From Patescibacteria group bacterium (GTDB taxonomy: Bacteria; Patescibacteriota; Microgenomatia; UBA1400; 2-01-FULL-45-11), in contig JBHPHI010000001.1 of the NCBI GenBank assembly GCA_042569595.1, positions 8,326 to 72,325 of the forward strand: a stretch of 64,000 nt of DNA, given 5' to 3'. Shown here in pieces: positions 7,019 through 55,316 of this stretch. The notes under the pieces are model-generated. The model searched no databases, was not told the DNA's origin, and saw nothing but the letters and a program-made list of their open reading frames with translations. How positions within the stretch are numbered: the first letter of the stretch is position 1; each line of letters starts with the position of its first letter. The position numbers and the translations under genes were made by a program.

Positions 7019-7082
7019 CTTAGACAAAGTCTCATCAAATGACCATCTAATGGCTAGACTCGCGATGGATCGTTTGATATAG

Positions 7083-9086
<2,004 letters not shown>

Positions 9087-10041: not shown

Positions 10042-12720
10042 ATGACAGATAAACCAAAAGACATCCAACCAGAAAATCAAAATCCTGAAGAGGAGCTAGA
10101 AGAAGATGCGCAATTTGATTCGACTCCAAAACAAACTGATTATGGTTTGATAAAACCTGTCAAAATCACGCAAGAAATGGAAAAATCATATCTTGATTAC
10201 GCTATGTCTGTTATTGTTTCCCGCGCTCTTCCAGACGTAAGAGATGGATTAAAACCAGTTCATAGACGTATTTTATACGCCATGAAAGGCCTTGGTCTTA
10301 CAAGTAATGCCTCATACAAAAAATGTGCCAGGATCGTTGGAGAAGTACTGGGAAAATATCACCCACACGGAGACACAGCAGTTTACGATGCGCTCGTTCG
10401 TTTAGCTCAAAGTTTTTCCGTTCGCTACCCATTAATAGATGGGCAAGGAAACTTTGGATCCGTCGACGGAGATTCCGCAGCTGCCATGCGTTATACCGAA
10501 GCAAAGCTATCCAAAATCACCAACGAACTACTTGTTGATTTAGACAAAAACACAGTAGATTTTCGAGACAACTTTGATGGATCAGAGCAAGAACCCACAG
10601 TTCTTCCCGCCAACTTACCAAACCTTCTATTAATGGGAGGGGATGGTATTGCAGTTGGTATGGCTACCAAAATTCCACCACACAATCTCTCTGAAGTAAT
10701 AGATGCCACTATTGATCTAATTGATTCAGCCAAAATAGAAAAGACTAAATCCAAACAAAAAACTGAAGAGGAAGTAGCAGAAGCAGAACCAAAAGATCTC
10801 CTTGGAGATTTTGATTTTGAATCTACCATAGATGACCTACTAAAACACATAAACGGGCCAGACTTTCCAACTGGATCAACCATGTACGACTGGGAATCCA
10901 TCAGAGAAGCTTATGTAACAGGAAGAGGAAGAATTGTTCAAAGAGCCAAAGCAGTAATAGAGGAAGATAAAAAAGGTCGTTTCCATATAGTCATTACCGA
11001 AATTCCATATCAAGTAAATAAATCTCGATTAGTTGCAAAAATTGCAGATCTTGTTCGAAAGAAAAAGATTGACGGAATATCAGACTTACGAGATGAATCT
11101 GATAGAGAAGGAATGCGCGTAGTTGTTGATCTGAAACGAGATGGTAGACCAAAGTCTGTACTAAATAATCTATACAAACAGACCCAATTACAAGACACAT
11201 TCTCAGCCAACATGGTTGCCTTAAACTCAGACGGTACTCCACAACTCATGAACCTAAAAACCATATTGTCCGAGTACGTTAAACACAGACAACTTGTCAT
11301 CACCAGAAGATCACAGCACGAACTTATAGCCGCCAGACACAGAGCCCACATTCTAGAAGGACTCCTTATTGCCTTAAACAACCTCGATGAAGTTATTGAA
11401 ACTATTAGAAAATCTAAAGATGTCGATACTGCTCGCGCAAACTTAATAAAAAAATTCAAACTTTCAGAGATTCAAGCTACCGCAATTTTAGACATGCAAC
11501 TTCGAAGACTAGCTGCTCTTGAAAGACAAAAAATTGAAGATGAATACAAAGCCATCAAAGCCAAAATCGATTTCCTCGTTGACCTCCTAAATAATCCAGT
11601 CAAGGTTCTTGCAACAGTAGCTGAAGAACTAAAAGAGGCCAAAGAAAAATACCAAGATGAAAGAAGAACCAAACTAGTCAAATCAAAACTCGGTGAATTC
11701 AATGAAGAAGACCTGATTCCCTCAGAAGAAAATATCGTCACTATTACAGAGTCAGGCTACATCAAGCGTATGCCTGTCAACGCATATAGAAGCCAAAGAA
11801 GAGGTGGTAAGGGTGTCACTGGCATGAAAACAAAAGAGGAAGACCCAGTTGCAAAAATTCTAACAGCCAACACCCACGACAACATGCTTGTCTTTACCAA
11901 TAAGGGAAAGGTGTTTAAGTTGCGAGTTTACGAACTTCCAGAAGGATCCAGACAAGCAAAAGGTAGTAACGTCATCAACCTTATCAATATTGCACAAGAT
12001 GAACTCATTCAAAGTGTCATTACTGTTAGCTCCAAACTTGATCAGATAAAGGACCAATATATTGCACTTGCTACCAAGAAAGGCCTAGTAAAAAAGACTG
12101 CCGTCAGCAAATTCCAAAACATCAGAACAAGCGGTATTATTGCCGTTCAACTAAATGATGGTGATGAATTAGTTTGGGGTAATGTCACCAACGGAAACAG
12201 CGACATCATCCTAATCACTCACTTCGGAAAATCAATTAGATTTAGTGAAAATCAGGTCAGACCCACCTCAAGAGATACTAAAGGGGTAAAAGGTATTTCT
12301 CTTAAAAAAGAAGACTACGTCATGGCAGTTAGAAGACTCGATCCCAAGCCAGATAAGCCCGCGGACAAAAGACGAAAATTTTTCCATGACTTATTAATCA
12401 TCACTCAAAAAGGGTACGGAAAAAGAACCCCATTCGATCAATACCCAACTCAAAATAGGGGAGGACAAGGTGTGAAAGTGGCAAATCTTACTAAAAAAAC
12501 CGGAAACGTCGCCTCAGCACTCAGTGCAAATCAAGACCTTGATCAAATTCTCATCACCACCAAAGAAGCCCAAGTGATCAAACTCCCGCTCAAAAATATT
12601 CCTCAGCTTAAAAGACCTACACAAGGAGTCATACTTATGAGATTCAGCAAAAAGGATGATGGGGTTGTAGCCGCAGCTGCAATTAAAAAAGATAACGGTG
12701 AAGAAGAATTGCCCGAATAG
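10042..12720 (+). CDS. gyrA: DNA gyrase subunit A
   Basis: [32 protein letters not shown] (catalytic Tyr), C-terminal beta-pinwheel repeats; acidic C-terminal tail. Confidence 0.97.
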
Positions 12721-22252: not shown

Positions 22253-22681
22253 ATGAGACTTTGGAGCCTTCATCCCAGATATTTAGACACGAAAGGCCTT
22301 CTTGCCGTCTGGAGAGAAGGATTACTAGCCAAAAATGTAATCGAAGGAAAGACTAAAGGCTACACCAAACACCCTCAGCTTATCCGATTCAAATCACATT
22401 CATCACCAAAAAATGCCATCAACTATTATCTCCATCAAATATTTTTAGAGTCCATTAATCGAAGTTATAAATTCGATAAAAGTAAACTTATCTATATAGA
22501 CAAAATAAGTAAAATCAAAGTCACTACCAAGCAAGTAGATTATGAACTCAAACACCTAAAAAACAAGCTAAAGTTAAGAGATTCCTCAGGTTACAAAAAA
22601 CTCCAGACAATAGAAGAAATCAAATTAAACCCCTTATTTACCATCATCCCTGGTGAAATCGAGTCTTGGGAAATTGTCTAA
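22253..22681 (+). CDS. pyrimidine dimer DNA glycosylase (T4 DenV / Pyr_excise family)
   Basis: N-terminal MRLWSLHPRYLDTKGLLAVWREGLLA... and ...HPQLIRF... are characteristic of this family. Confidence 0.8.
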   Translation: MRLWSLHPRYLDTKGLLAVWREGLLAKNVIEGKTKGYTKHPQLIRFKSHSSPKNAINYYLHQIFLESINRSYKFDKSKLIYIDKISKIKVTTKQVDYELKHLKNKLKLRDSSGYKKLQTIEEIKLNPLFTIIPGEIESWEIV

Positions 22682-23469
22682 ATCTTTTTCTTAGGAAATA
22701 TCACCAAAAGACTTGTGCTTTTTTTGTATTCTTGATATTTTTTATTACTCTTATGCCTCTCATCATATTTCTTTTCCAATAAAGGAATCCCGCTTACAAA
22801 CATAAGAATGAACGTAATAAACATGGGTCCTACTATAGTAAACCACCCCAAACCACTCAAAAGGGGAGAGGCATACGCAAACAATCCCCACCACAATAAT
22901 ATTTCACCAAAATAATTTGGGTGTCTTGAATATTTCCATAGACCAGAGTCTATCCAAAGTCCTTTATTTTTCTTATTGTTTTTAAATACAAACTTTTGCC
23001 AATCAGATACCGTTTCGATTATCAAACCCAATGCCCAAATTAGCATACCTACTACCATCCAAGGCACTATTCCAATATCCTTCTTTTCTAAAAGAACATA
23101 TATAGTTGGAAGCATTATTGCCCAAACTGCAACTCCCTGAAAAAACCAAAATTTATAAAAGCTTAGAGCATTCTCTCTCATTTGATCAAATCTTTTGTCC
23201 TTCTTAATCTTTAGAATCCTAATTAATAAGTAAGCAATAAGTCTGACTCCCCAAACGATCACCATTAAAGAAAGAAGATTTTGAAAAGAGTGGTAAGTGC
23301 CTGTACTAATTAAAAAATATATTGTCAGCAATATGAAAGTCATGCCATAAGTAAAATCTGTAAACTTGTCAGTCTTAAATGCATAAGCAAAGATAAAAAA
23401 TAGAGTGTTTATTCCCAAGGAAACGAGTAAAGCAAAAAGATATGGATTCATGACAAAATTATACAACAA
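22678..23469 (-). CDS. DUF1295 / steroid 5-alpha-reductase-like membrane protein (likely leaderless start ATG at 23451)
   Basis: ...LWKYSRHPNYFGEILLWWG... signature, polytopic. TATAAT (23463-23458, minus) lies 6 nt upstream of ATG 23451. Confidence 0.75.
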   Translation of the reverse strand: MLYNFVMNPYLFALLVSLGINTLFFIFAYAFKTDKFTDFTYGMTFILLTIYFLISTGTYHSFQNLLSLMVIVWGVRLIAYLLIRILKIKKDKRFDQMRENALSFYKFWFFQGVAVWAIMLPTIYVLLEKKDIGIVPWMVVGMLIWALGLIIETVSDWQKFVFKNNKKNKGLWIDSGLWKYSRHPNYFGEILLWWGLFAYASPLLSGLGWFTIVGPMFITFILMFVSGIPLLEKKYDERHKSNKKYQEYKKSTSLLVIFPKKKI

Positions 23470-23490
23470 TCAATATGAAAAAATTCCGCA

Positions 23491-23518
23491 CTCCGTGTGG
23501 GATGCTATTAGAACTTAT
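23491..23518 (+). repeat. 28-bp direct repeat, copy B (CTCCGTGTGGGATGCTATTagAACTTAT)
   Basis: See copy A. Lies between the stop of 23519-24400 (-) and the DUF1295 promoter. Confidence 0.9.
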
Positions 23519-24400
23519 CTACCAACCAACACCGCCAACGATGTCAGAATATATTGCAAATTTTGAATTAAATGCATCAACATCACCTGGAGCATCTACA
23601 TCTAATATTAAATCTATGGCAGGGCTCAAAAACAAGCCAACATCTAACCCCAAGGTTCTAGACAACACCTTTTCATAATCATTCTTAGTTCTTAAGTTAG
23701 ACAAGGGAACTGCTTCCTTTACGCCCTCAATCATTTGTATTGTTTTTGAAACATAGTTAGCGGCAATAGAATAAAAGAGGGGAGCATTTCCAAGCTTTGC
23801 AAAATACAACATTCTTTGAATTCCTGTAACTAACATGCTGCTAGCCTGCGAAGCCCTATATTCGTCTACTACGGGCACAGACAAACTTCTTAAAGAACTT
23901 GATTTCGCTGAATACACATTTCCAAAAACAAAAGACTCATCTTTCATTGGCCAATACATGTATTTCCTGTGGGGCATCAATAAGTCTGCATTACTTTTTC
24001 CAACGATTGGAACTCCAATATCTGTTTCGGGAAAGTTGCTTGAAATCCAATCAATAGTTTCAGGCCTTAAAAACGGAAGATCAGACGAAACGACTAATAT
24101 CTCATCAGAACTACCTGTTTTCTCATGCCTATCTAAAGCCAATTTCAAGTTGCCCATGAAGCTACCCCCCTCACCAACCAATACACAACTTTTTTCCATT
24201 AGATCTGTTTGTTTGCCCAATACTTCTTCGGGACCTGCTACAAAAACTTGACCAGATGTTTCAGAAGCATCCAAAGCACTCAATACCCTGGAAATAATTG
24301 GCTTTCCATTAATTTGATTAAGGTGTTTATATACACCCTCATCACGAACTAAGTCACCACCAGCCAACAATAAAATGTCAGGAGTTAAATTTTCCTTCAT
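23519..24400 (-). CDS. MobA-like NTP-transferase family protein with C-terminal extension
   Basis: N-terminal ILLLAGG......ING.PII nucleotide-binding motif; function not assignable. Confidence 0.45.
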   Translation of the reverse strand: MKENLTPDILLLAGGDLVRDEGVYKHLNQINGKPIISRVLSALDASETSGQVFVAGPEEVLGKQTDLMEKSCVLVGEGGSFMGNLKLALDRHEKTGSSDEILVVSSDLPFLRPETIDWISSNFPETDIGVPIVGKSNADLLMPHRKYMYWPMKDESFVFGNVYSAKSSSLRSLSVPVVDEYRASQASSMLVTGIQRMLYFAKLGNAPLFYSIAANYVSKTIQMIEGVKEAVPLSNLRTKNDYEKVLSRTLGLDVGLFLSPAIDLILDVDAPGDVDAFNSKFAIYSDIVGGVGW

Positions 24401-24440
24401 GTCGAGGGATTATACCAAAAATAGTCAAGAAAAAAACCTA

Positions 24441-24524
24441 ATGTACTCTATATACATTGGCCTAGCTGTTTTTCTTCTCTTGGGAATAATATTTTTCTTA
24501 AAAAAGTCCTCTGCAGGAATCTAA
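24441..24524 (+). pseudogene. 27-codon remnant or paralog of the 3' end of 21010-21312
   Basis: MYSIYIGLAVFLLLGIIFFLKKSSAGI versus MFSVYIGLALCLLLGIVFFFLKKSSI. Roughly three quarters of the nucleotides are identical over about 85 nt (one 3-nt gap), and similarity continues a few codons upstream of the ATG. Confidence 0.4.
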
Positions 24525-24602
24525 TACACACTGCATTGCAAACATCTCTAATTTTGCTATTCTGAGATCATATTTATCTTCGTGAATGGGGGTGAGTACA
24601 TA

Positions 24603-25397
24603 ATGAAAAAAATTACAAGTTTGTTAGCGGGAGTTGTTTTATTGGCAATTGTTATGCCAGCAATGGCTGCTAAGCCAACTAATACACCAAACAATGGAAC
24701 GTCAGGAGAAAAGATAACTGGATCTATTGAAATAGATAGAGGCGATGAAAACATGAGATATGCTGAGTTTAATGCTCATGAAGCATATGGCGATAAGGAT
24801 GCTAAAGGTGAATTTCATTGGTGGATGACTGATGGCAAAGGCCTCATGTTAAGAGAGATATATGTTGATGTAACTGATGTAAGAGTAATGGGAGATGATG
24901 GATGGTTTGAGGGAATGGCTACGCATGATAGTCAGGCTGGAGCTAGAGAGGGAGATATGTTTTACGTCAAAGTATTTGATGGTGGAACTCCTGCTACCGA
25001 TGGAGATATGATTTGGTGGAGTTGGGATTCTCCAGCTTATAAGGAAAAGGCATTAGTTGGTGGTAATTTAGTAGTTCACAGTAATCCATGTGAGGTATAT
25101 GAACTGAATGTTAGTACGGTTAACGGAAATGGTGGATACTGGCACACATTCGAGCTGACTTTTTGCCCAGGAGAAGAGCCTTATGGAACTGGAAAGAGAT
25201 CAGCTGGAACGGAAACAGCAAGTGATATTGTTTTGGAAGATGGGATGATTTCCTTTAGGTCTGACTACGATGAGAGTGCGTATTATTGGTTCCCATCCTT
25301 CTATTTGGAAGAAGGGGGAGAACTTATTTTTAACAATGCGTATGGCCCAGACAATGTCAAATCTGCAACTGGAACCTGGTTAATGTATACCGAATAG
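24603..25397 (+). CDS. secreted hypothetical protein
   Basis: GGGGGTGAG Shine-Dalgarno, signal peptide MKKITSLLAGVVLLAIVMPAMA|AKP; no recognisable domain. Confidence 0.5.
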   Translation: MKKITSLLAGVVLLAIVMPAMAAKPTNTPNNGTSGEKITGSIEIDRGDENMRYAEFNAHEAYGDKDAKGEFHWWMTDGKGLMLREIYVDVTDVRVMGDDGWFEGMATHDSQAGAREGDMFYVKVFDGGTPATDGDMIWWSWDSPAYKEKALVGGNLVVHSNPCEVYELNVSTVNGNGGYWHTFELTFCPGEEPYGTGKRSAGTETASDIVLEDGMISFRSDYDESAYYWFPSFYLEEGGELIFNNAYGPDNVKSATGTWLMYTE

Positions 25398-25415
25398 CAG
25401 TTTAGTTGTAAGTTA

Positions 25416-25448
25416 AACAACCCGTCGTTTATTCGATGGGTTGTTTTT
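25416..25448 (+). terminator. rho-independent terminator
   Basis: AACAACCCGTCG tttatt CGATGGGTTGTT (12-bp stem, one G.U) followed by TTT. Confidence 0.75.
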
Positions 25449-25489
25449 AAATTAAGTTATAATTAACACATAGTAATTACAAAGAAATT

Positions 25490-25927
25490 ATGGCTAAAAA
25501 ATCATCACCAAAAAGACTTTATCGAAGCGAATCTTCAAAAGTGTTAGCAGGGGTTTGTACTGGATTAGCAGAATATTTTGACTTGGATCCTACCATAGTA
25601 AGACTCTTCTTTATTCTAGCTACTATGATGGGCGGATCTGGATTAGTGGCCTATGTAATGATGTGGATATTTATTCCCTCAAAATCATCAGTCAAACTTG
25701 ATTCCGATGAATATATAAAGAAAAACACAGAGGAGCTAAAAGACAAAGCTCAGTCTCTTGCTAAAGGAGTTTCGAAGACTAACGGTAGATTTATAAGCGG
25801 GGGTGTTCTCATCCTTGTTGGAGTAGCTTTTCTTCTAAACAACTTAGGGTTGTGGAGGATTAAGTTTGACTTTATCTGGCCTCTTTTCTTGGTAGCACTT
25901 GGATTATCAGTTATGACGAGGAAATAA
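25490..25927 (+). CDS. PspC-domain membrane protein
   Basis: LYRS...KVLAGVCTGLAEYFDLDPTIVRLFFIL... canonical PspC domain. Confidence 0.8.
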   Translation: MAKKSSPKRLYRSESSKVLAGVCTGLAEYFDLDPTIVRLFFILATMMGGSGLVAYVMMWIFIPSKSSVKLDSDEYIKKNTEELKDKAQSLAKGVSKTNGRFISGGVLILVGVAFLLNNLGLWRIKFDFIWPLFLVALGLSVMTRK

Positions 25928-25928
25928 A

Positions 25929-26915
25929 ATGACCACAGAAAACGAAAAAGCTAAAACAAAATCTAAACCCTTCTGCGGCCCTTTCACTGGAGACATTACG
26001 GGGGGGTTATTTTTGGTGTTTTTGGGAGTTATTTTTCTATTCAATAACCTTGGTATCGTGCCTTGGGAAGTTTGGGGTAGTCTCTGGAAATTCTGGCCCG
26101 TTCTAATTATTCTTTCGGGAATCAATCATATTATGGGAAAATCCGTCATCTCTCGTCTTCTGGTAGCTGTAGTTTCTCTAGGAACTTTTGCAGCAATCAT
26201 TCTATATTCAGTTCCCCAGATAGCCACATACGTTCCATACTTACCAAAACTACCTGGATTAAAGACTATAGATGTCTCTACAAAACCCGCATCAGAAAAC
26301 ATGACGGTAGATGAATTTAGCAAACTCAGTCTTGAATACCCAGCAACCGTTACCCTAGTCAGGGGAGAGGAATCTGAGGTTTCCATAAAGGCTAGCGAAG
26401 AGGATCTAAAAAACATCGAGGTTGGGGTCGAAGATGAAAAGTTGTTTATTAAAACAAAAAATAAATTTACAAACTTGTTCGATTCAAAAACAGAAATCGT
26501 GGTAACCACCACAAAAGACATCGATACTATTTTGATCGCAGGTTCTGGCAATGTTTGGTCCAAGGAAGCACTTGCTTCAGAAAAACTAAAGCTAACAGTG
26601 GCTGGATCTGGAAACATTAAGATGGAAGTAATGTCTCTCGACATTGAGTCTGAAATAGTTGGTTCCGGAAATATTGTTCTAATGGGTAGCTCAGATTCCA
26701 CAAAAGTAAAAATTGTAGGATCTGGCAACTATAGCGCATATGAGCTTGAAGCCAATTCTGCAAACATAGAAATAGCTGGATCCGGAGATGCTGAAGTTTT
26801 TGTAAATGAAAGCTTAGATATAAATACACTGGGATCTGGAGACGTTACCTATAAAGGAAGTCCAAAAGTATCACAAAATGTAAGTGGGTCTGGATCAGTC
26901 GGTCAACAAGAATAA
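25929..26915 (+). CDS. membrane-anchored DUF2807 (GIN-domain, beta-helical) protein with LiaF-like N-terminal TM region
   Basis: Repeated (A/V/L)GSG(N/D) strands in the C-terminal half (IAGSGNV, VAGSGNI, VGSGNI, VGSGNY, AGSGDA, LGSGDV, SGSGSV). Confidence 0.65.
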   Translation: MTTENEKAKTKSKPFCGPFTGDITGGLFLVFLGVIFLFNNLGIVPWEVWGSLWKFWPVLIILSGINHIMGKSVISRLLVAVVSLGTFAAIILYSVPQIATYVPYLPKLPGLKTIDVSTKPASENMTVDEFSKLSLEYPATVTLVRGEESEVSIKASEEDLKNIEVGVEDEKLFIKTKNKFTNLFDSKTEIVVTTTKDIDTILIAGSGNVWSKEALASEKLKLTVAGSGNIKMEVMSLDIESEIVGSGNIVLMGSSDSTKVKIVGSGNYSAYELEANSANIEIAGSGDAEVFVNESLDINTLGSGDVTYKGSPKVSQNVSGSGSVGQQE

Positions 26916-26934
26916 AAAATTAAAACTTTTATTT

Positions 26935-26962
26935 AAAAGACGCTCGTAAGGGCGTCTTTTTT
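26935..26962. terminator. bidirectional rho-independent terminator between convergent genes
   Basis: AAAAGACGC tcgtaagg GCGTCTTTT, then TT. Confidence 0.7.
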
Positions 26963-27194
26963 ATGAACCTATTAAGTCTCCGTCTTTATACTTACTTCCA
27001 GTTGCATGAGTACTTGGCAAACCATTATTTTCTGAAACTATACGAAAAACATTTGATTTTGAAGCTCCCTCCTTCATGGCAGCTTCAGCCCTTTCCTCTG
27101 CTTCAGGGTCTACATCAAAAAACCTCCTAAGACTTCCTAAAAACTTTGGTCCATACTCCGGATTTGCTGACATTTTCCTAATATACCAGACCAA
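26961..27194 (-). CDS. small hypothetical protein (likely start MSANPE at 27173)
   Basis: TATATT (27185-27180, minus) lies 6 nt upstream of ATG 27173; no domain recognised. Confidence 0.35.
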   Translation of the reverse strand: MVWYIRKMSANPEYGPKFLGSLRRFFDVDPEAEERAEAAMKEGASKSNVFRIVSENNGLPSTHATGSKYKDGDLIGS

Positions 27195-27235
27195 TCTTAA
27201 AAATATCTAACATAATAATTACACACATTCGAAAC

Positions 27236-28180
27236 TTATTTGTTTCCACTATGATATTTCTCATGAACACTTCGAAGCTGAGGATTAGTTACGTGAGTAT
27301 AAATTTGCGTGGTAGAAATGTTTTTGTGTCCTAACATTTCCTGAACTTCTCTAAGCCCCGCTCCACCGGATAGAATATCTGTCGCAAAAGAATGTCTTAG
27401 GCCGTGCGGAGTGATCTTTACGGGCAGCTTTGCCTTCTTTCTATACTTCTCAACTATCCGCTGAACGCTCCTAGCGCTTAGCCTCATTTCTTCACCTTTA
27501 TCGTAAGGTTCAGCTTTTGTGCGAGTATAGCGAACAAAAGCTGGTATCCACATATCTTCGCGCATATCAAAATACTTCTGTATCCACTCAACTGCTCTAG
27601 AGCTTAAAAACACAATTCTGGCCTTCTTGCCCTTTCCTATTACCCCAAATTCGCGTCTTTTCAGGTTTATCTGATCTCTGTTTAAAGAAACCAACTCAGA
27701 CACACGAAGGCCTGTGGAGAAGAGCATCTCCAATATTGCTTTGTCCCTCAGTCCTCGTTCGGTAGATATGCTAGGAGCATTCAAAAGTCTTTCTACCTGA
27801 TCTTGATCAAGAAACTTAAGAGACTTGCTTTCAGTTTTTGGAAGGTCAATTTTATCTGGAGCCAGCACATCGTAGTCATTTTTTATTAACCATTTCAAAA
27901 AACCACGAAGGGAAATGACATGATAACTTTGAGTCACGCGAGAAAGGGGAATTCCTTTTTCGTCAGTAAGACGAGATAGGTAAACTCTGTATTTTCGAAC
28001 CATCTTAAGGTCTAGCTTTTTTATGTCCTTATATCCGCGTTTTTCAAACCACGCACTAAAGCGAGTAAGGTAGTGAGCATAGTTTCTTACCGTATGTTGA
28101 CTGACCTGTCTTTCAACTTCTAGGTACTCGAGGTAGTCTGTAATTAAGTGTATCAAACTATTACTATCGGCCATTAGCAC
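27236..28180 (-). CDS. tyrosine site-specific recombinase, XerC/XerD-like (likely start MADSNS at 28174)
   Basis: N-terminal SAM-like core-binding domain; catalytic region ...TGLRVSEL..., HGLRHSFAT, LGHKNISTTQIYTHV (R-H-R-Y set). AAGGAG lies 5 nt before ATG 28174. Confidence 0.85.
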   Translation of the reverse strand: MLMADSNSLIHLITDYLEYLEVERQVSQHTVRNYAHYLTRFSAWFEKRGYKDIKKLDLKMVRKYRVYLSRLTDEKGIPLSRVTQSYHVISLRGFLKWLIKNDYDVLAPDKIDLPKTESKSLKFLDQDQVERLLNAPSISTERGLRDKAILEMLFSTGLRVSELVSLNRDQINLKRREFGVIGKGKKARIVFLSSRAVEWIQKYFDMREDMWIPAFVRYTRTKAEPYDKGEEMRLSARSVQRIVEKYRKKAKLPVKITPHGLRHSFATDILSGGAGLREVQEMLGHKNISTTQIYTHVTNPQLRSVHEKYHSGNK

Positions 28181-28640
28181 TCCTTATAATTATCTGCCAA
28201 CATACTCCTCCATATTGATGGACTGATCTATCGGCCCTTTTTTGGTGTTAGTGATGTGTTTTGATATAGTAAATAAATTCATTGGATCCTATAACAAATA
28301 AATGTAACGTCCTAGAGTATTTTCAAATGAACCTGCAGGGAAGGAGGGGAGACTTAACCCACAACAAAGGTCACCTAAAGCAACAAATCCTACATACTCA
28401 CTACATAAAAGTTGGAAGTTCGTTCTATTTTTCTTAAATATCATAGGCAGTTTCTACTCCATTGTACGCCATCAAACAATTTTTTTGTATACACATACAT
28501 CCAAAGAGGGGAGGAGCACAATTGAATAAAAGATTTATGAATAGGGAATAAATTTATTAAAATTTATTTAAGATTATTACGTCTTCATGTCGCAATATAT
28601 TTATTTCTTGATAGGGGAGATATTGTGCGACATAAGATCT

Positions 28641-28669
28641 TTGAAAAAATATCTTTTCAAACATACAAT
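28641..28669 (+). promoter_or_regulatory. promoter giving a leaderless transcript of the TIM-barrel gene
   Basis: TTGAAA (28641-46) - 17 nt - TACAAT (28664-69) - 7 nt - ATG 28677. Confidence 0.55.
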
Positions 28670-28676
28670 ATTCATT

Positions 28677-29579
28677 ATGATCAAACCCGGAATAAAACTT
28701 GGACCAAAAAACGACCTACACCGCCTAGAAAACACCGGCGCTAAGTACTGTGAGGTTTGGTATAGAATCGATAAGCCCGAATGGTATTCTAACTACTTTA
28801 CATTCTTCAAAAAAAACCGAATAAACTCTGGGCTTCATTATTGGGGGGCGGTTGATCAAGCGTATGAAACAAATATTGCTTATCCTGGAGAGATTCAAGA
28901 AAAATCCATCAAGCTAATTGAAAAATGCATTGATGTTGCAGCCCAAAACAAATGTCACTATGTAAACATTCATGCTGGAGCCAGGAAATTGACCAGACTA
29001 GACATGAAAACTTTAAGATTTAATGTTGATCAATACAGTCTTGAAGTGTCTGAAAAAGACGCTGATACAGCCCAAAAAGAATCACTCATACATCTTAGTA
29101 ATTACGCCTCCGACAAAGGCGTATTATTCCTAGTGGAAACAATTCCTGCCAAGATTCACAACAAAGATACCAGACATAAACCTGAGCCTTACTATGCAAT
29201 GACCTCACAAAACCTACTCAAGCGAGCCACGCAAGACAACATCAGTATCACAAATGACTTCTGCCATACATTTTCCGAAGAGTTCGAAAAGCCTTTAGAC
29301 CAGTTATGGAAATCACTTTGGGATAAAACCTCTAAACTCGCACCTTACACAAAACTACTGCATATAAATACTTTAGTGTCGCCATACAACGGAACTGACA
29401 CTCATCACGGAATTACCAACGAAGATTTTGAAATTGATGGAATATTTCCAACCAAAGAAAAATTGAAAGAAGCGCTTTCGCTTTTTAGGGACCGCGACGA
29501 TGTGTGGGCGATTAACGAACCGTCCGAAAACCACGAAGATAACTACTTTTCACTAAAAGAGCTTATAAACACCCTCTAA
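28677..29579 (+). CDS. xylose-isomerase-like TIM-barrel protein (AP endonuclease family 2 / sugar phosphate isomerase-epimerase type)
   Basis: ...CHYVNIHAG..., ...LFLVETIP..., ...DFCHTF..., ...LLHIN... metal-ligand-like strand ends typical of this fold. The track ORF starts at 28587, but 28677 fits the promoter. Confidence 0.6.
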   Translation: MIKPGIKLGPKNDLHRLENTGAKYCEVWYRIDKPEWYSNYFTFFKKNRINSGLHYWGAVDQAYETNIAYPGEIQEKSIKLIEKCIDVAAQNKCHYVNIHAGARKLTRLDMKTLRFNVDQYSLEVSEKDADTAQKESLIHLSNYASDKGVLFLVETIPAKIHNKDTRHKPEPYYAMTSQNLLKRATQDNISITNDFCHTFSEEFEKPLDQLWKSLWDKTSKLAPYTKLLHINTLVSPYNGTDTHHGITNEDFEIDGIFPTKEKLKEALSLFRDRDDVWAINEPSENHEDNYFSLKELINTL

Positions 29580-29597
29580 ACCCTTAAAATAAGGGGT

Positions 29598-29610
29598 TCT
29601 ACCAGGCTAA
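29598..29610. repeat. left arm of 13-bp perfect inverted repeat (TCTACCAGGCTAA)
   Basis: Exact reverse complement of 30246-30258. Confidence 0.8.
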
Positions 29611-30209
29611 GACGCGTTCTAATGGCCCAAAACCGGCTTTTTATTTTCAACATGATTCATTGTTCATTCAAATGATGCATTGTAGACACCATTTGCCCCG
29701 TATATCGCAGTTTGTATCAATTTCAATACAAGTAATGTGATGTTGTGAGGGTTTCAAATATGTCAAATTCCCAAAAAGGCAAAAAGTGTTCGGGTTTATA
29801 TACAAAATGAAAAAAATGAGTAAGCCACAAAAAAAGGGAAGTCACAAAACAATTTATTTCCTTTATGCATTTTATTCAGTTAATGCCAAACGATTTCCTC
29901 CGTTAGTGGTGCAAAATAAGCCCCTTCTCCGTCCCTAGGCTACATGTCGTAAAAGTATTATTGTGCGACATTATAGCAATCAGGAAAGCGTTTCGATAAA
30001 CATGCACACATATTCGCTGGGGAAGGTATTAATTAACTAAATTACTTCATTGTGGGCGTTTAAGGATATATATCCTCTTTTTTGTGTTTAAATAAATCAA
30101 AATAATTCCACTCTTCCTACTTCTACTCAATTAATTTCTTTATTCGGGTTTTATACCTACCTTCATCCCCCCCGAGGACCCTGAGGGAAAATTTGAGGAA
30201 TTTGGGGGT

Positions 30210-30248
30210 CAAACTATATCATTTATGTGTAACAAACTATATCATTTA
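30210..30248 (+). repeat. tandem direct repeat CAAACTATATCATTTA x2 (7-nt spacer)
   Basis: 30210-30225 and 30233-30248 are identical 16-mers. The second overlaps the right IR arm. Confidence 0.85.
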
Positions 30249-30258
30249 GCCTGGTAGA
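30246..30258. repeat. right arm of 13-bp perfect inverted repeat (TTAGCCTGGTAGA)
   Basis: Exact reverse complement of 29598-29610. Confidence 0.8.
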
Positions 30259-30263
30259 GAGAG

Positions 30264-30272
30264 TTATCCACA
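30264..30272 (+). promoter_or_regulatory. perfect consensus DnaA box TTATCCACA (single copy)
   Basis: Exact 9-mer match, 5 nt after the right IR arm, inside the ORF-free region. Confidence 0.3.
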
Positions 30273-30697
30273 ATTCTTGCATGCATGAGTCTCCAGAGAG
30301 GAGTAAAAGGAGCGCTACATGGCTCTTTTTATGTACTTCACCCCTGGAGTCTACGATCTACTATTTTTATTAAATACGTACACATGAAAGGATTGTCCCT
30401 GTGAAAACTTATAGTCCTTCGTGAAAAGAAATGTTATAGGACATATAAACTATAGGACACTCCTCTACTTTGCTGTGTTGTAATTTTGTACTCGCCACTT
30501 CCCTTCTTTTGTTTGTGTAAAAAAATGAGTGCAATGCATTAAAACAAATAAACAAATTAATTAATCTTTAATGTTTTCTTGATCATAATCAGCTTATTTA
30601 TTCATTCAAGCCACGAGGCACCTCCAAAGACACCCCAAACCACTCCCCTTTCAAAAAAACAAATCACTTGAGGAAAACAAGATTGTACTTGAGGAAA

Positions 30698-31465
30698 TTA
30701 TTTCCAAGGAGTCACTATTATCGCAGCCAAAAGAACAAACACCCCTACAGATAAATACTCTTGAAGAGTCTGAGGAAACAATCGCTCAGATATCTCATGC
30801 TGAAGCAAACCAAGACCCACATAAACCACAGTTACCAAGATTATTGAAGCCACCCATACCGAAAATGGCAAAAGTGACACTGCTAGGGCCAACTGAAGCA
30901 CTAAAATAGAAATAAATCCGGCCTGCCTCCAAATCATTGGACTAACTTTCTCTTCAAGCTTAACAGACCACAAACCAGTTAACATCAGAGGAAACGTAGA
31001 TGCCCCAGCCAACAATCCGTTCAATAAAAAAGAAATCCTAAGAGAAAAAATTGTGTTAAATATCAAAAGCAAAGTAACTAAAGTCAACAAAAACCCTACT
31101 GCATGGGCAGCTCTCAACAATTGAATAGTTCTCACGGCCGCCACAGAAAAGATATTACAAGTAAGATAAATTGCATACATACCCAAACCAAACAAAGTCA
31201 TGATAAAAACTCTTGCCCACCATGCCTCTGGAAGAAGAAAGTAGAAAAGGGCTACACTGGCAGCATATATGGCCGGAAAAGGCACAATAGTAAACCACTC
31301 AACTCCCTTCAAATCATCAAGCAACGCTACAGTCGAAACCAAAAAACTAGCAACAAAAAATACAAAAACAGCTAGGAATCTATACTCTAACGCAATATAT
31401 TGAATCCCCAACAAACCTAGAGACAATAACAAGGAGCTTAGAACAAATTTTCTTCTTTTCGTCAT
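30698..31465 (-). CDS. polytopic membrane protein, unknown function
   Basis: About 8 hydrophobic helices, no motif recognised. Confidence 0.5.
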   Translation of the reverse strand: MTKRRKFVLSSLLLSLGLLGIQYIALEYRFLAVFVFFVASFLVSTVALLDDLKGVEWFTIVPFPAIYAASVALFYFLLPEAWWARVFIMTLFGLGMYAIYLTCNIFSVAAVRTIQLLRAAHAVGFLLTLVTLLLIFNTIFSLRISFLLNGLLAGASTFPLMLTGLWSVKLEEKVSPMIWRQAGFISILVLQLALAVSLLPFSVWVASIILVTVVYVGLGLLQHEISERLFPQTLQEYLSVGVFVLLAAIIVTPWK

Positions 31466-31468
31466 ATA

Positions 31469-32008
31469 TTAACTTGCGTTTGTTACCACTTCCTCAACAT
31501 CATCGTGTTCTTCAAGTAATTCGGCCATTTTTTCAACTTTTTCCTTTATATCATCAGTCGAAGGCATTGGAACCTTTACAGTAATGTCATTACCACTTCT
31601 CTCAAACATATAAGAAACCGATCCAGGACCCCCCAAAGATCCGCCATTCTTATCAAACAAATGTCTCACCTCAGCCCCAGTTCTTTGTCTGTTGTCCGTA
31701 AGGGCTACAACCATAAACCCAATCCCTCCTGGTCCAAAACCCTCATATAAAACTTCTTCTATTTGCCCACCCTTACCAACTCCAAGCCCTCGATCTACGG
31801 CACGTTGAACGTTGTCTTTTGGCATGTTTGCCTGTCTTGCTTTATCCATTGCCACTCTCAAAGAAGGGTTTTGATCGGGATCCCCGCTCTTCCCTTGCTT
31901 TACGGCAATTCGAATCATTTTGGATATTTCACTAAAAACTTTACCTTTTTTTGCATCAGTAGCAGCTTTTTTATGTTTTATTGTGCTCCATTTACTGTGA
32001 CCACTCAT
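31469..32008 (-). CDS. yebC: YebC/PmpR family DNA-binding regulator (short form)
   Basis: MSGHSKWSTIKHKKAATDAKKGKVF...; the track ORF has 5 extra N-terminal codons. Confidence 0.85.
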   Translation of the reverse strand: MSGHSKWSTIKHKKAATDAKKGKVFSEISKMIRIAVKQGKSGDPDQNPSLRVAMDKARQANMPKDNVQRAVDRGLGVGKGGQIEEVLYEGFGPGGIGFMVVALTDNRQRTGAEVRHLFDKNGGSLGGPGSVSYMFERSGNDITVKVPMPSTDDIKEKVEKMAELLEEHDDVEEVVTNAS

Positions 32009-32186
32009 ACGCTCCCCTTTCAAAACAAAGTTATATCTCGTGTTTATAGGGGAATTTTATCATTCACAAATTCAGTAGTCTATTAAATAAGCCTATGTGT
32101 ATTTTATCAGTATTGACAGATAAACAAGTCTGGTTTATTTTTTGCCTAGAAGTATTTGATAGAAATTAAAAATATATTCTACAAAA

Positions 32187-32780
32187 ATGGGTGAAGACCT
32201 AAAAAACAAAGCCATCAAATCTGCTCTAAGCCAAGATTGGGAACCCGCCATTGAATATAATCTCGAATACTTAGATGAATTCCCAAACAACATTCCCGCT
32301 CTAAATAGACTAGCAAAAGCCTACTTCCACACGGGAAATCTAAAAAAAGCTCAAGAAACCTACAAGAAAGTTCTCTCTCTAGATAAATACAACCCAGTCG
32401 CCTCAAAACAAATACAGAAACTAAGTAACGGTTGTAAAAATCGTCGCTCAAAAACAATAAAATCAAAATTTGTTGAAGAACCCGGAAAAACAAAAAAAGT
32501 AGAACTCTTAAGGGTTGCGGACAAGAACATTCTTCATGAATTAGATTCTGGAGAATTACTCGATCTTAAAGTAAAGAAGGGTCGTCTTTGTGTATTTTCT
32601 CAAGACGACCAATATATTGGCGCTCTCCCAGATGACATATCTTTCCATATTAGGAAGCTCATAGAAACGGGAAATAAGTACGAAACTATCCTTTGTAGCT
32701 CAAGCGACAGGCAGGTATTAGTTTTTATTAGAGAAATCCTGCAATCTTCAAAAAACACCAATCACGCATCTTTCCACTAG
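32187..32780 (+). CDS. TPR-repeat protein
   Basis: N-terminal TPR-like helices (...ALNRLAKAYFHTGNLKKAQETYKKVLSLDKYNP...). Confidence 0.45.
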   Translation: MGEDLKNKAIKSALSQDWEPAIEYNLEYLDEFPNNIPALNRLAKAYFHTGNLKKAQETYKKVLSLDKYNPVASKQIQKLSNGCKNRRSKTIKSKFVEEPGKTKKVELLRVADKNILHELDSGELLDLKVKKGRLCVFSQDDQYIGALPDDISFHIRKLIETGNKYETILCSSSDRQVLVFIREILQSSKNTNHASFH

Positions 32781-38603: not shown

Positions 38604-38693
38604 GCCGAGGTGGCGGAACTGGTAGACGCGCAGGTCTCAAAAACCTGTGGAGCTTAAACTCCGTGGGGGTTCGATCCCCCCCCCTCGGCACCA
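38604..38693 (+). tRNA. tRNA-Leu (anticodon CAA), class II long variable arm, CCA encoded
   Basis: Acceptor GCCGAGG/CCTCGGC, D-arm GGCGGAACTGGTAGACGC, anticodon loop CTCAAAA, variable arm GTGGAGCTTAAACTCCGT, T-arm GGGGGTTCGATCCCCC, then A-CCA. Confidence 0.93.
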
Positions 38694-54374: not shown

Positions 54375-55316
54375 TTAGTCTCTAAGTATTTCCAAATCTG
54401 ATTCTAATTTTTCACAAGGAAGTTGGGTTAGAAACATAGATGTTCTATTCAACACCTCCTCTTTTGTGATAGATTCCAAAATCTCTGTCCCATATGCTTC
54501 CACCGTGTAAGAAGCCAAAATACTTCCCAATAACGCGGCAGTTCTCATTGATCTCATATCAAATCTACCCAAAGCTGACAAAACACCAGCTATCGCTCCT
54601 CCTAAAACATCTCCCGCTCCCGTTGGATCAACAGCATAAACCAATGGATAGCTTGGAACTATAAAATTTCCCAACTTCCCATAAACAGACAGGCCATGCT
54701 CTCCCTTTTTATAAACAATCACTTTCGGCCCCAAAAGCATTAGTGTCTCTATCATTTCTGGCAAAGGGAGATCTTTTCCAACCAAAAACTTTGCCTCCCC
54801 TTCCGATATTGTGAAAACATCAACATCCTCAAGAACTTTTATCAGGTGATCTCTCTTCTCTATCATCCACAATTCCATACTATCTAATATTTTTATAGTA
54901 TTTTTTGGAAGGTTTTTCACAATTTTTCCCTGAATTTCTGGGTCTATATTTGACACAAAAGCAGCGAAACTGTCTTTTGAAAGTGGCTTAACTTTTTTTG
55001 CATCATAATCCTCAAAAGCATTCATCTCATTCTTTATGGTGGTCACTTTGCCTAGATCAGCAGAGTATCGTGCCTCCCAATGAAAAGATTTCCTTTTTGA
55101 CTTATATACTCCAGAAATATCCACCCCCTTGGATTCCAGCAAATCTAAATAATCTAAGGGAAAATCGTTGCCAACAATACTGCTCAGAGCTGTTTCACAA
55201 AAAATTGATGATGCTAGTGCTGCGTAAGTGGCTGAACCACCCACAACATTATTCAAACAATGCTCTTTAAAATGAATTTTATCCACAGCCATAGTGGGAC
55301 AAATAAAAGACTTCAT
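54375..55316 (-). CDS. PfkB-family (ribokinase-like) sugar/nucleoside kinase
   Basis: ...VGGSATY..., C-terminal DPTGAGDVLGGA anion-hole/catalytic motif. Confidence 0.8.
   Translation of the reverse strand: MKSFICPTMAVDKIHFKEHCLNNVVGGSATYAALASSIFCETALSSIVGNDFPLDYLDLLESKGVDISGVYKSKRKSFHWEARYSADLGKVTTIKNEMNAFEDYDAKKVKPLSKDSFAAFVSNIDPEIQGKIVKNLPKNTIKILDSMELWMIEKRDHLIKVLEDVDVFTISEGEAKFLVGKDLPLPEMIETLMLLGPKVIVYKKGEHGLSVYGKLGNFIVPSYPLVYAVDPTGAGDVLGGAIAGVLSALGRFDMRSMRTAALLGSILASYTVEAYGTEILESITKEEVLNRTSMFLTQLPCEKLESDLEILRD

Follow-up and report, generated by a model that had tools for sequence, protein, structure and literature searches.

A conserved non-coding unit with a probable Xer recombination site in a convergent intergenic gap of a Patescibacteria genome

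Patescibacteria, or Candidate Phyla Radiation (CPR) bacteria, make up a large share of bacterial diversity and almost nothing is known of how they maintain their chromosomes. The window analyzed in this study is a stretch of 64,000 nucleotides from one such genome (contig JBHPHI010000001.1, 38% GC) whose nearest named relative, as judged by matches of the flanking proteins, is Candidatus Chisholmbacteria. It contains a gap of 1118 bp (29580-30697) between two converging genes, one for a TIM-barrel protein on the plus strand and one for a DUF5656 protein on the minus strand. No other intergenic gap in the window, convergent or otherwise, is as large, and the longest open reading frame (ORF) inside it has 50 amino acids, in agreement with a first-pass annotation that had singled out the gap as long and ORF-free. 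The same annotation held that most convergent gaps measure 0-35 bp, which is true of six of the ten others in the window (-4, -4, 0, 1, 1, 32, 124, 225, 320 and 385 bp), the rest reaching up to 385 bp. We find that the gap is best explained as a conserved non-coding unit of approximately 0.9 kb (roughly 29596-30520) that acts at the level of DNA. The strongest conserved block within this unit, a feature overlooked in the first-pass annotation, is a 28-bp imperfect palindrome with an 11-6-11 layout. As judged from sequence comparison, this 28-mer is probably the recombination site of a Xer-family tyrosine recombinase that is encoded nearby, with a role like that of dif.

The core site, ATGTCGTAAAAGTATTATTGTGCGACAT, is made up of one arm reading ATGTCGTAAAA and a second arm reading ATGTCGCACAA in reverse complement, set around the asymmetric 6-bp centre GTATTA. 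The site consensus is ATGTCGYAAAA-GTATTA-TTGTRCGACAT, with the two arms in agreement at 9 of 11 positions. The 28-mer occurs once in the window against an expectation of 0, and is present in the homologous gene-free gap of all 12 relatives that were found through their flanking proteins (approximately 35-90% protein identity). A metagenome scan, for which the query consisted of the inner 25 bases with Y and R permitted at the two variable positions, recovered the site in at least 120 contigs. There was one match per stretch and no contig appeared twice among the matches listed, which include contigs of 0.71, 1.17 and 1.41 Mb that each have a single site match. In the 1.17-Mb contig (ERZ761596 NODE-1) the site is near 275.6 kb, and in the 1.41-Mb contig (Ga0196971_1000001) it is within 954.8-964.2 kb. 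A second copy with up to 8 mismatches, in either orientation, was not found in 785 kb of related loci, and the exact site pattern was absent from 2.9 million viral contigs (IMG/VR). The site thus has the dimensions of known dif sites, which span 28-31 bp with inverted arms of about 11 bp and a centre of 6-11 bp, and it likewise combines a non-coding position and strong conservation across species with flanking genes that vary. Both the 11-6-11 layout and the organization of gene and site as a module are hallmarks of dif/Xer systems (PMC5357621).

The pattern of variation within the site indicates what kind of element it is. Information content falls to approximately 0 one base to the left of the site and within 3 bases on its right. 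The symmetry-related positions 7 and 22 vary independently of each other (TG 39, CG 28, TA 27 and CA 13, about what the margins predict). Additionally, in four lineages (L002, L003, L004 and L132) the centre GGTATA replaces GTATTA while the arms are unchanged. Sharp edges, independent variation at positions 7 and 22 and a swapped centre together argue for a protein-binding DNA site and not for an RNA hairpin or a coding sequence. The GGTATA allele fits a situation in which the protein reads the arms and only identity from partner to partner matters in the crossover region, and its existence means that a scan for the exact pattern understates how widespread the site is. In L002, L003 and L004 the site with this second allele is located at about 7860-8340. 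A side effect of the sequence is that the reverse complement of the site begins with ATG, which gives rise to spurious ORFs starting MSHNNTFTT on the minus strand of the window. Such ORFs of 60-95 codons, with a (V)IMSHNNTFTT start, are present in several genomes (L068 and L035 of the main clade, for example), and gene callers may annotate them as hypothetical proteins. As both variable positions of the site would be non-synonymous and no synonymous variation was seen, MSHNNTFTT is not a coding signal.

The recombinase gene is 1.8 kb from the site in the window, and in related loci the distance between gene and site ranges from 0.24 to 9.5 kb. Its product has the Pfam domains Phage_integrase and SAM-like N-terminal, and gives full-length matches to the NCBIfam models XerC (258 bits), XerD (255 bits) and XerA (214.5 bits, with a cut-off of 220), all of which are below the equivalog cut-offs. 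The XerS model is matched by the C-terminal half only, with 134 bits against a cut-off of 267, and no XerH-named model is among the NCBIfam matches. The best match in the PDB is E. coli XerD (1a0p), and alignment to this structure shows the catalytic R-K-H-R-H-Y set expected of a Xer-family recombinase, with the motifs LRVSEL, GKGxKxR, HxLRH, LGH and IYTH conserved. The family comprises 7,938 proteins at E <= 1e-40, the best 120 of which are all at least 62% identical, and where these proteins carry names the names are XerD, Patescibacteria or Microgenomates. In loci that were fetched by the site alone, tblastn found the recombinase on the left and the DUF5656-YebC-TPR genes on the right in nearly all cases with enough flank.

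A further connection between recombinase and site is provided by two half-sites, ATGTCGCAA and ATTGTGCGACAT, that are situated between the recombinase gene and the promoter-like sequence TTGAAA-17-TACAAT of the TIM-barrel gene. An exact TTGTRCGAC half-site is present within -50 to +250 nt of the recombinase start in 39 of the 69 loci that hold the N-terminus, and the one-mismatch variants ATTATGCGACAT and TTTTGCGACAT were seen by eye in many of the remaining loci. The half-sites often overlap a promoter-like TTGACA-17-CACAAT on the recombinase strand. From this co-occurrence of half-sites with the recombinase gene we infer that the recombinase may recognize the arms and repress its own promoter. 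The first-pass annotation had also connected the gap with the neighboring tyrosine recombinase. That was the right direction, with the difference that the likely target is the 28-bp site and not the 13-bp inverted repeat that the annotation had put forward.

Homologues of the TIM-barrel protein (approximately 42-53% identity) are found in the same synteny each time, namely Xer-like integrase (-), TIM barrel (+), gap, DUF5656 (-), YebC (-) and TPR (+), and the gap in these loci is 0.85-1.1 kb and without a called gene in every case. The DUF5656-YebC-TPR order is syntenic with the 28-bp site in almost every locus that has enough flank. The gaps of relatives are not alignable from end to end, and what they have in common are short blocks that are nearly invariant. 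The possibility raised at the outset, that the region would prove to be unconserved in relatives, does not apply. The unit extends from TTCTACCAG (29596) to about 30520, and its left limit is constant whichever gene adjoins it, with the left boundary block kept in the window and in L010, L131, L132, L005, L007 and L009 despite differing cargo. A search with nhmmer that used the single window gap as query was too insensitive to go beyond the closest relatives. No similarity was found between the gap and plasmid or phage sequences. An alternative genetic code was considered as a cause of the gap and ruled out, since no frame opens in the gap when TGA is read as a sense codon and the in-frame stop that separates YebC from DUF5656 is not TGA. 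The coordinates of all features are collected in Table 1.

Table 1. Features of the non-coding unit and of its surroundings, in positions of the 64-kb window
Feature	Position	Strand	Remarks
Xer-family tyrosine recombinase gene	27236..28180	-	ORF of 314 amino acids; NCBI protein of 312 amino acids
Recombinase-proximal half-sites ATGTCGCAA (28588-28596) and ATTGTGCGACAT (28621-28632)	28588..28632	+	24 nt apart
Variable cargo gene, xylose-isomerase-like TIM barrel (AP_endonuc_2)	28677..29579	+	Between recombinase promoter and unit
Left boundary block, TTCTACCAGGCTAAGACGC..TCTAATGGCCCAAAACCGGCTTTTTAT	29596..29646	+	Holds left inverted-repeat arm (29598-29610)
TTCGGGTTT motif, copy 1	29789..29797	+	About 156 nt left of 28-mer
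CT-rich tract CCCCTTCTCC	29921..29930	+	Just left of site
28-bp dif-like core, ATGTCGTAAAA GTATTA TTGTGCGACAT	29944..29971	+	11-6-11 imperfect palindrome
GA-rich tract GGGGAAGG	30019..30026	+	Right of site; complementary to 29921-29930
TTCGGGTTT motif, copy 2	30143..30151	+	Recurs in relatives
Two copies of CAAACTATATCATTTA (the tandem 16-mer of the first-pass annotation)	30210..30248	+	Core ACTATATCA
TTAGCCTGGTAGA, right inverted-repeat arm	30246..30258	+	Member of the TTAGCCTS / SAGGCTAA family
Consensus DnaA box TTATCCACA	30264..30272	+	Exact
Two YGTGAAAA boxes, CTGTGAAAAC and TCGTGAAAAG, with TATAGTCC between	30399..30428	+	Also in relatives
Two TATAGGAC boxes (30435-30442 and 30451-30458)	30434..30458	+	TATAGG / CCTATA family
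CCACTTCCCTTC block	30495..30506	+	Near right end of unit; CYACTTCYC family, plus strand only
Right-hand neighbours: DUF5656 membrane protein, short YebC, TPR protein	30698..32780		30698-31465 (-), 31469-32023 (-), 32187-32780 (+)

The 28-mer is embedded in an array of further motifs, which we counted in 80 related loci with enrichment calculated against the rest of the same loci. To the right of the site the motifs are enriched 30-90 fold, and three families are locked in orientation relative to the asymmetric site. The most enriched is ACTATATCA, which is present in 71 of the 80 loci with a plus to minus ratio of 77:1 and an enrichment over background of about 90-fold. A perfect DnaA box is found in 53 loci, always on the plus strand (53:0) and about 31-fold over background, and its flanks are conserved as AGTTATCCACA. 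YGTGAAAA is present in 75 loci (plus to minus 131:4, about 34-fold over background), and its reverse complement STTTTCACR resembles a weak DnaA box that is opposed to the strong one. Two families occur in both orientations, TATAGG / CCTATA in 73 loci and TTAGCCTS / SAGGCTAA in 45, with the latter located on both sides of the site. TTCGGGTTT recurs at about -158 and about +200 in the sub-clade of the window, with TTAGCCTCA-type motifs in its place in the other major clade. The CT-rich tract to the left of the site and the GA-rich tract to its right recur in most clades and are mutually complementary. The order and copy number of motifs, and for some motifs the orientation, vary among clades. 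Such variation in order suggests independent protein-binding modules and argues against a folded RNA.

Several of these motifs had been noted in the first-pass annotation, and the inverted repeat, the two 16-nt repeats and the DnaA box are all exact at the positions it gave. The 16-nt direct repeat (30210-30225 and 30233-30248, 7 nt between copies) is significant against dinucleotide shuffles (P = 0.002) and proved to be a duplicated ACTATATCA motif that is conserved across the clade. The DnaA box, which that annotation had called perfect, is backed by the conservation and single orientation described above. Within the window itself a single box is not significant, with 14 relaxed boxes against 9.6 expected, only 2 of them in the gap, and a second perfect box at 55279. 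The 13-bp inverted repeat (29598-29610 and 30246-30258) is of marginal significance, with repeats of at least 13 bp found in 2.6% of dinucleotide shuffles (P = 0.026), and is not kept by relatives as a long inverted repeat. Its arms both belong to the TTAGCCTS family and reach 13 bp in the window genome only. As relatives do not conserve it, the repeat was ruled out as a long-range helix or a terminal repeat. A G/C-rich island is present as described, albeit poorly conserved. In contrast, the terminator-like hairpin reported there was not called in a terminator scan, is not conserved as a hairpin and is absent in L131. Read on the minus strand, ACTATATCA becomes TGATATAGT, a sequence similar to an extended -10 element. 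The window has 4 occurrences of it where 0.43 would be expected. Two of these occurrences are outside the gap, directly before gyrB (7075-7083, +) and upstream of the recombinase gene (28262-28270, +), and face opposite to the two gap copies. TGATATAGT could be a strong extended -10 promoter element or the site of a shared regulator.

Between the recombinase promoter and the unit is a slot for variable genes. The TIM-barrel gene occupies this slot in only approximately 18 of the related loci. For example, L010 has the TIM barrel. The recombinase of L131 shares 87% identity with that of the window, and in this locus the slot is filled by a GNAT acetyltransferase gene and a hypothetical gene on the other strand instead. 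Other lineages carry trehalase-like, GH18-like, RND pump, glycosyltransferase, toxin-antitoxin or secreted hypothetical genes. Toxin-antitoxin pairs of the Phd/YefM-ParE/RelE type are situated beside the recombinase gene or in the slot (L060 at -811..-264 and L132 at 10986-11502). Genes at 22678-28183 have four-fold-site GC skews of 0.00, +0.36, 0.00, -0.07 and +0.12, against -0.3 to -0.9 in the rest of the window, and this segment, which adjoins the recombinase gene, looks like recently acquired or rearranged DNA. Given that unrelated genes are exchanged in the slot and that skew is atypical to the left of the site, the slot is a hot spot of gene turnover. The sigma-70-like promoter of the TIM-barrel gene (28641-28669, +) is 8 nt downstream of a half-site, and thus the cargo gene may also be controlled by the recombinase.

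The model that we favor for these observations is a single-recombinase Xer/dif module akin to XerS/difSL, XerH/difH, XerA and XerL. Recombinase monomers would bind the two 11-bp arms and strand exchange would take place in the central 6 bp. If there is one site per chromosome, the natural reaction would be recombination between the two directly repeated copies that are present in a chromosome dimer. The half-sites beside the recombinase gene would allow the enzyme to repress its own promoter. The TTCGGGTTT or TTAGCCTCA motifs that flank the site on both sides, together with the ACTATATCA repeats, the one strong DnaA box, the two weaker inverted DnaA-like YGTGAAAA boxes and the TATAGG boxes of the right-hand array, may constitute accessory or regulatory DNA. 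This array might be bound by other proteins, DnaA among them, that control use of the site, or alternatively might contain promoters that feed into the site. Our confidence in any specific function of the array is much lower than our confidence in the dif-like role of the 28-mer. What the sequences establish directly are the site, its architecture and conservation, its linkage to the recombinase and to half-sites, the enrichment of motifs and the turnover of cargo, and it is from these that binding and cutting of the site by the recombinase, a role in dimer resolution and an action of the accessory array are inferred.

Several observations weigh against a dif-like role. Classical dif is located at the replication terminus, and the orientation of genes around the locus agrees with such a position. 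When coding bases of more than 100 loci are pooled, 84-94% on the left are on the plus strand and 84-90% on the right are on the minus strand, so that orientation converges on the locus in the pattern expected at a terminus. These loci share synteny and are dominated by the same orthologous neighbours, and so they are not independent observations. Skew does not agree. At 1-22 kb and 30-64 kb nearly all genes, in whichever orientation, have a negative plus-strand GC skew at four-fold degenerate sites, the excess of C and A on the plus strand at these sites is uniform across the locus, and in pooled relatives GC skew has the same sign to the left and to the right of the site. A skew switch that would mark a terminus is therefore seen neither in the 64-kb window nor in pooled relatives, and the locus is not at such a switch, at least within approximately 30 kb in the window genome. 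The two signals conflict, and no simple replication model, be it origin, terminus, mid-replichore or unidirectional, fits orientation and composition together. Conservation of the site has to be read with some care as well. The invariance of the inner 25 bp in loci derived by pattern is partly there by construction, and only the 12 protein-derived loci are unbiased in this respect. When an alignment of 14 sequences from the largest clade was folded, the plus strand around the site had z-scores of -5.5 to -8 and the minus strand z-scores of -2.4 to -4.7. These values leave room for a single-stranded DNA or RNA stem around the site, although such a stem is not supported. Finally, we know of no chromosomal dif site that comes with a conserved accessory region of approximately 0.8 kb or with a DnaA box, and it follows that part of the unit may serve another function. 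With regard to position, dif sites of Legionella can be up to 79 kb from the skew inflection (PMC9765430), and archaeal XerA sites, which are FtsK-independent, can be 122-144 degrees from oriC (PMC5357621).

The presence of a DnaA box raises an alternative in which the right-hand part, or even the whole unit, serves DnaA-dependent control of replication, as an origin or as a locus for titration or recycling of DnaA in the manner of datA or DARS, with the 28-mer bound by some other factor. Such a reading draws on the perfect box with its single orientation, on the two weaker DnaA-like boxes in opposite orientation approximately 22 nt apart nearby, and on the AT-rich ACTATATCA repeats with their 10-nt period. 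Length, a non-coding nature and a constant position are also traits that the locus shares with oriC, datA and DARS of E. coli, and the replication genes gyrB, gyrA, dnaB, dnaX and holB are within 35 kb of it. However, the genes on both sides point at the locus, which is the opposite of what is seen at an origin, and no switch in GC skew is present. Together these exclude an origin. A bacterial origin is typically marked by a cluster of DnaA boxes next to an AT-rich unwinding element, by a skew minimum from which genes diverge and often by adjoining dnaA and dnaN, and neither of these two genes is among the annotated ORFs of the window. The locus has just one strong box, and the 28-mer has the architecture of a recombinase site that is matched by half-sites at the recombinase gene. 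We therefore consider control by DnaA to be an improbable account of the unit, while a datA- or DARS-like role of the array could coexist with a dif-like role of the core. The ter/dif or DnaA-titrating locus that had been listed among the candidates of the first-pass annotation pointed in the right direction, towards a DNA locus with a probable dif-like site and a conserved DnaA box. A second alternative is a large non-coding RNA of approximately 0.6-0.9 kb, transcribed leftward from TGATATAGT or rightward from TATAAT-like boxes, in which the 28-mer would be an internal hairpin. A conserved, ORF-free region of about 0.9 kb, the overrepresented extended -10-like TGATATAGT with one copy just before gyrB, the CT-rich and GA-rich tracts that are able to pair, and the alignment folding around the site that beats column shuffles in one clade are all compatible with an RNA. 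Nevertheless, Rfam 15 has no match at gathering score in the gap, where only two chance matches appear at E <= 10, nor in 7 homologous loci, and ARAGORN reports only a tRNA-Leu at 38604 over the window. Folding of the unit as a single sequence is weak (plus strand z = -1.5, minus strand z = -1.3). Predicted pairs in the alignment are invariant or changed on one side, with a change on both sides in just one pair. The palindromic partners 7 and 22 vary independently with C opposite A in 13 loci, and the own flanks of a locus pair through the CT and GA tracts hardly better than the flanks of other loci (P = 0.08 and 0.04). The order and copy number of motifs, and some orientations, differ among clades, and the 13-bp inverted repeat is unconserved. 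The structured RNA that had been proposed from the window sequence thus finds no support here, and we regard it as quite unlikely.

The turnover of cargo suggests a different kind of alternative, in which the locus is a platform for gene capture or integration of the integron type or of the type used by integrative mobile elements exploiting Xer (IMEX), with foreign DNA inserted at the site or sites and dimer resolution not the main role. Cargo differs even among close relatives, is diverse across lineages and begins directly beside the recombinase-proximal half-sites, skew in the window is atypical over the 6 kb to the left of the site, and contig ends within 60 nt of the site are more frequent than expected. 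Against this, approximately 350 nt of the conserved unit separate the cargo from the 28-mer, so that cargo adjoins the half-sites and is not at the crossover site, and no second full site or attC-like repeat flanks it. With no full site adjoining and no repeat flanking the cargo, an integron-like or IMEX-like mechanism is only a possibility. Integron-integrase models match the recombinase with 115 bits against 265 and with 59 bits against 435, which does not agree with an integron. The exact site pattern is missing from viral contigs, and the recombinase is vertically conserved at approximately 60% identity beside housekeeping neighbours. Gene capture as the main role is in our view about as unlikely as a large RNA. 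Least probable by far is a miniature inverted-repeat transposable element (MITE), an invertible segment of 635 bp with the 13-bp inverted repeat at its ends, or a decayed gene, all of which had been named as candidates in the first-pass annotation. The exactness of the repeat and the tyrosine recombinase gene nearby favor a mobile or invertible segment. However, the repeat is marginal by chance expectation and is not retained in relatives, the segment has no other copy in the window, and its internal motifs have the same orientation relative to the flanking genes in all 125 oriented loci, which leaves that candidate unsupported. A pseudogene would not stay free of ORFs and conserved in blocks over a divergence that corresponds to approximately 35-50% protein identity, and Pfam gave no match at E <= 1 for the short ORFs of the gap. 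The decayed gene was therefore rejected, and a single-recombinase Xer/dif module, one that by sequence is neither XerS nor XerH nor an integron, is probably the correct description and is the reading with the best support.

Comparison with described systems shows both where this module belongs and where it departs from them. Like XerS/difSL of streptococci and lactococci, it pairs one Xer-type recombinase with its own probable site, which is genetically linked, non-coding and imperfectly palindromic. The site of XerS/difSL is present once (PMC5357621), and here one was found per locus. However, difSL has 31 bp with an 11-bp centre and is directly beside xerS at the terminus, whereas the site described here has 28 bp with a 6-bp centre, is 0.24-9.5 kb from the gene with cargo between, and is contained in a unit of approximately 0.9 kb. 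The recombinase is, moreover, not XerS by its model score. A single recombinase and a lineage-specific dif sequence are also features of XerH/difH in Helicobacter and Campylobacter and of XerL/dif in the Legionellales, the latter having been recognized by a length of about 30 bp, low GC, a partial palindrome, a non-coding position and varying flanks (PMC9765430). Sites of these two systems are within 0.1-79 kb of a GC-skew inflection, whereas none is present within approximately 30 kb on either side here, and they have not been reported with a conserved accessory array that holds a DnaA box, which the unit described here has. The archaeal XerA/dif system shares the 11-6-11 layout, high conservation across a large clade and a single recombinase. 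It forms a module in some genomes and is free of FtsK, and its dif site need not be placed 180 degrees from oriC (PMC5357621). The present module differs in being bacterial (Patescibacteria) and in having a recombinase whose matches to the XerC and XerD models are a little closer.

XerCD/dif of E. coli and B. subtilis has the same 28-bp length and 11-6-11 layout, and XerC and XerD are the models, and XerD the structure, to which the recombinase described here is closest. A comparison by eye with what we take to be the E. coli dif sequence gives 15 matches over the 28 positions, 8 of them among the 11 positions of the XerD-side arm. In contrast to XerCD/dif, both arms here follow one consensus (ATGTCGYAMAA), the gene is linked to the site and there is no skew switch at the site. 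Arms of a single consensus suggest one recombinase and not two paralogues. The accessory motifs have a different set of precedents. The plasmid sites cer and psi consist of a Xer core and a few hundred bp of accessory DNA bound by PepA, ArgR and ArcA, and their selectivity is independent of FtsK and of position. The likeness to these is one of function only and by analogy, as cer and psi are plasmid sites with accessory DNA on one side, while the present site is chromosomal with motifs on both sides that are different ones (DnaA box and others). The datA, DARS1 and DARS2 loci of E. coli are non-coding, keep a fixed place on the chromosome and have a few DnaA boxes whose relative orientation is defined. 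These have no sequence relationship with the unit, which has one strong box beside a recombinase site. Taken as a whole, the module differs from every described dif system by an orientation-locked accessory region of approximately 0.8 kb with a DnaA box, by a variable cargo slot and by the lack of a skew switch. In full-text searches of the literature, no account of a dif site, an origin or DnaA boxes came up for CPR/Patescibacteria.

A defined 28-bp site and one recombinase offer a directly testable entry point into chromosome maintenance in these bacteria, and the distinctive traits of the module may indicate that dimer resolution is controlled differently, or that recombination is linked to the control of replication. 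One scheme that we put forward as speculative, and consider doubtful, is that CPR bacteria of the Microgenomates type resolve dimers with one Xer recombinase, acting at a dif site whose position is independent of the terminus, with selectivity, and perhaps coupling to the cell cycle, provided by the approximately 0.8-kb array with its DnaA boxes. If true, this would be a chromosomal, FtsK-independent counterpart of the cer/psi design in which DnaA is a borrowed accessory protein. It would also account for gene orientation that converges on the locus without a skew switch, and the slot next to the promoter of the recombinase gene would at the same time be a hot spot of gene turnover. On the practical side, a site that occurs once per contig in at least 120 contigs could serve as a landmark for closing and orienting CPR genomes from metagenomes. 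For annotation, the unit illustrates that a long "empty" intergenic gap can be dense with conserved protein-binding DNA and need be neither an RNA gene nor a pseudogene.

Some smaller observations concern the surroundings of the site. The YebC/TACO1 protein encoded to the right of the gap is short, and its 184 amino acids match only positions 1-143 of an NCBIfam model that has 245. A single stop codon separates its end from the DUF5656 gene, with which it is in frame, and the same short form of 180-193 amino acids is present in relatives (L005, L006, L007, L010, L131 and L132). Contigs end within 60 nt of the 28-mer in 8 cases against 3.2 expected, four on each side (L011-L130), with no excess at larger distances and none among contigs of at least 10 kb. 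This may reflect branching of the assembly graph at a motif common to co-occurring species, or real heterogeneity of the junctions. Lastly, the loci L002-L004 are labelled "uncultured Pseudomonadales bacterium" and carry a CPR-type TIM-barrel gene together with the CPR 28-mer, so that the label looks wrong, through mis-binning or mislabelling.

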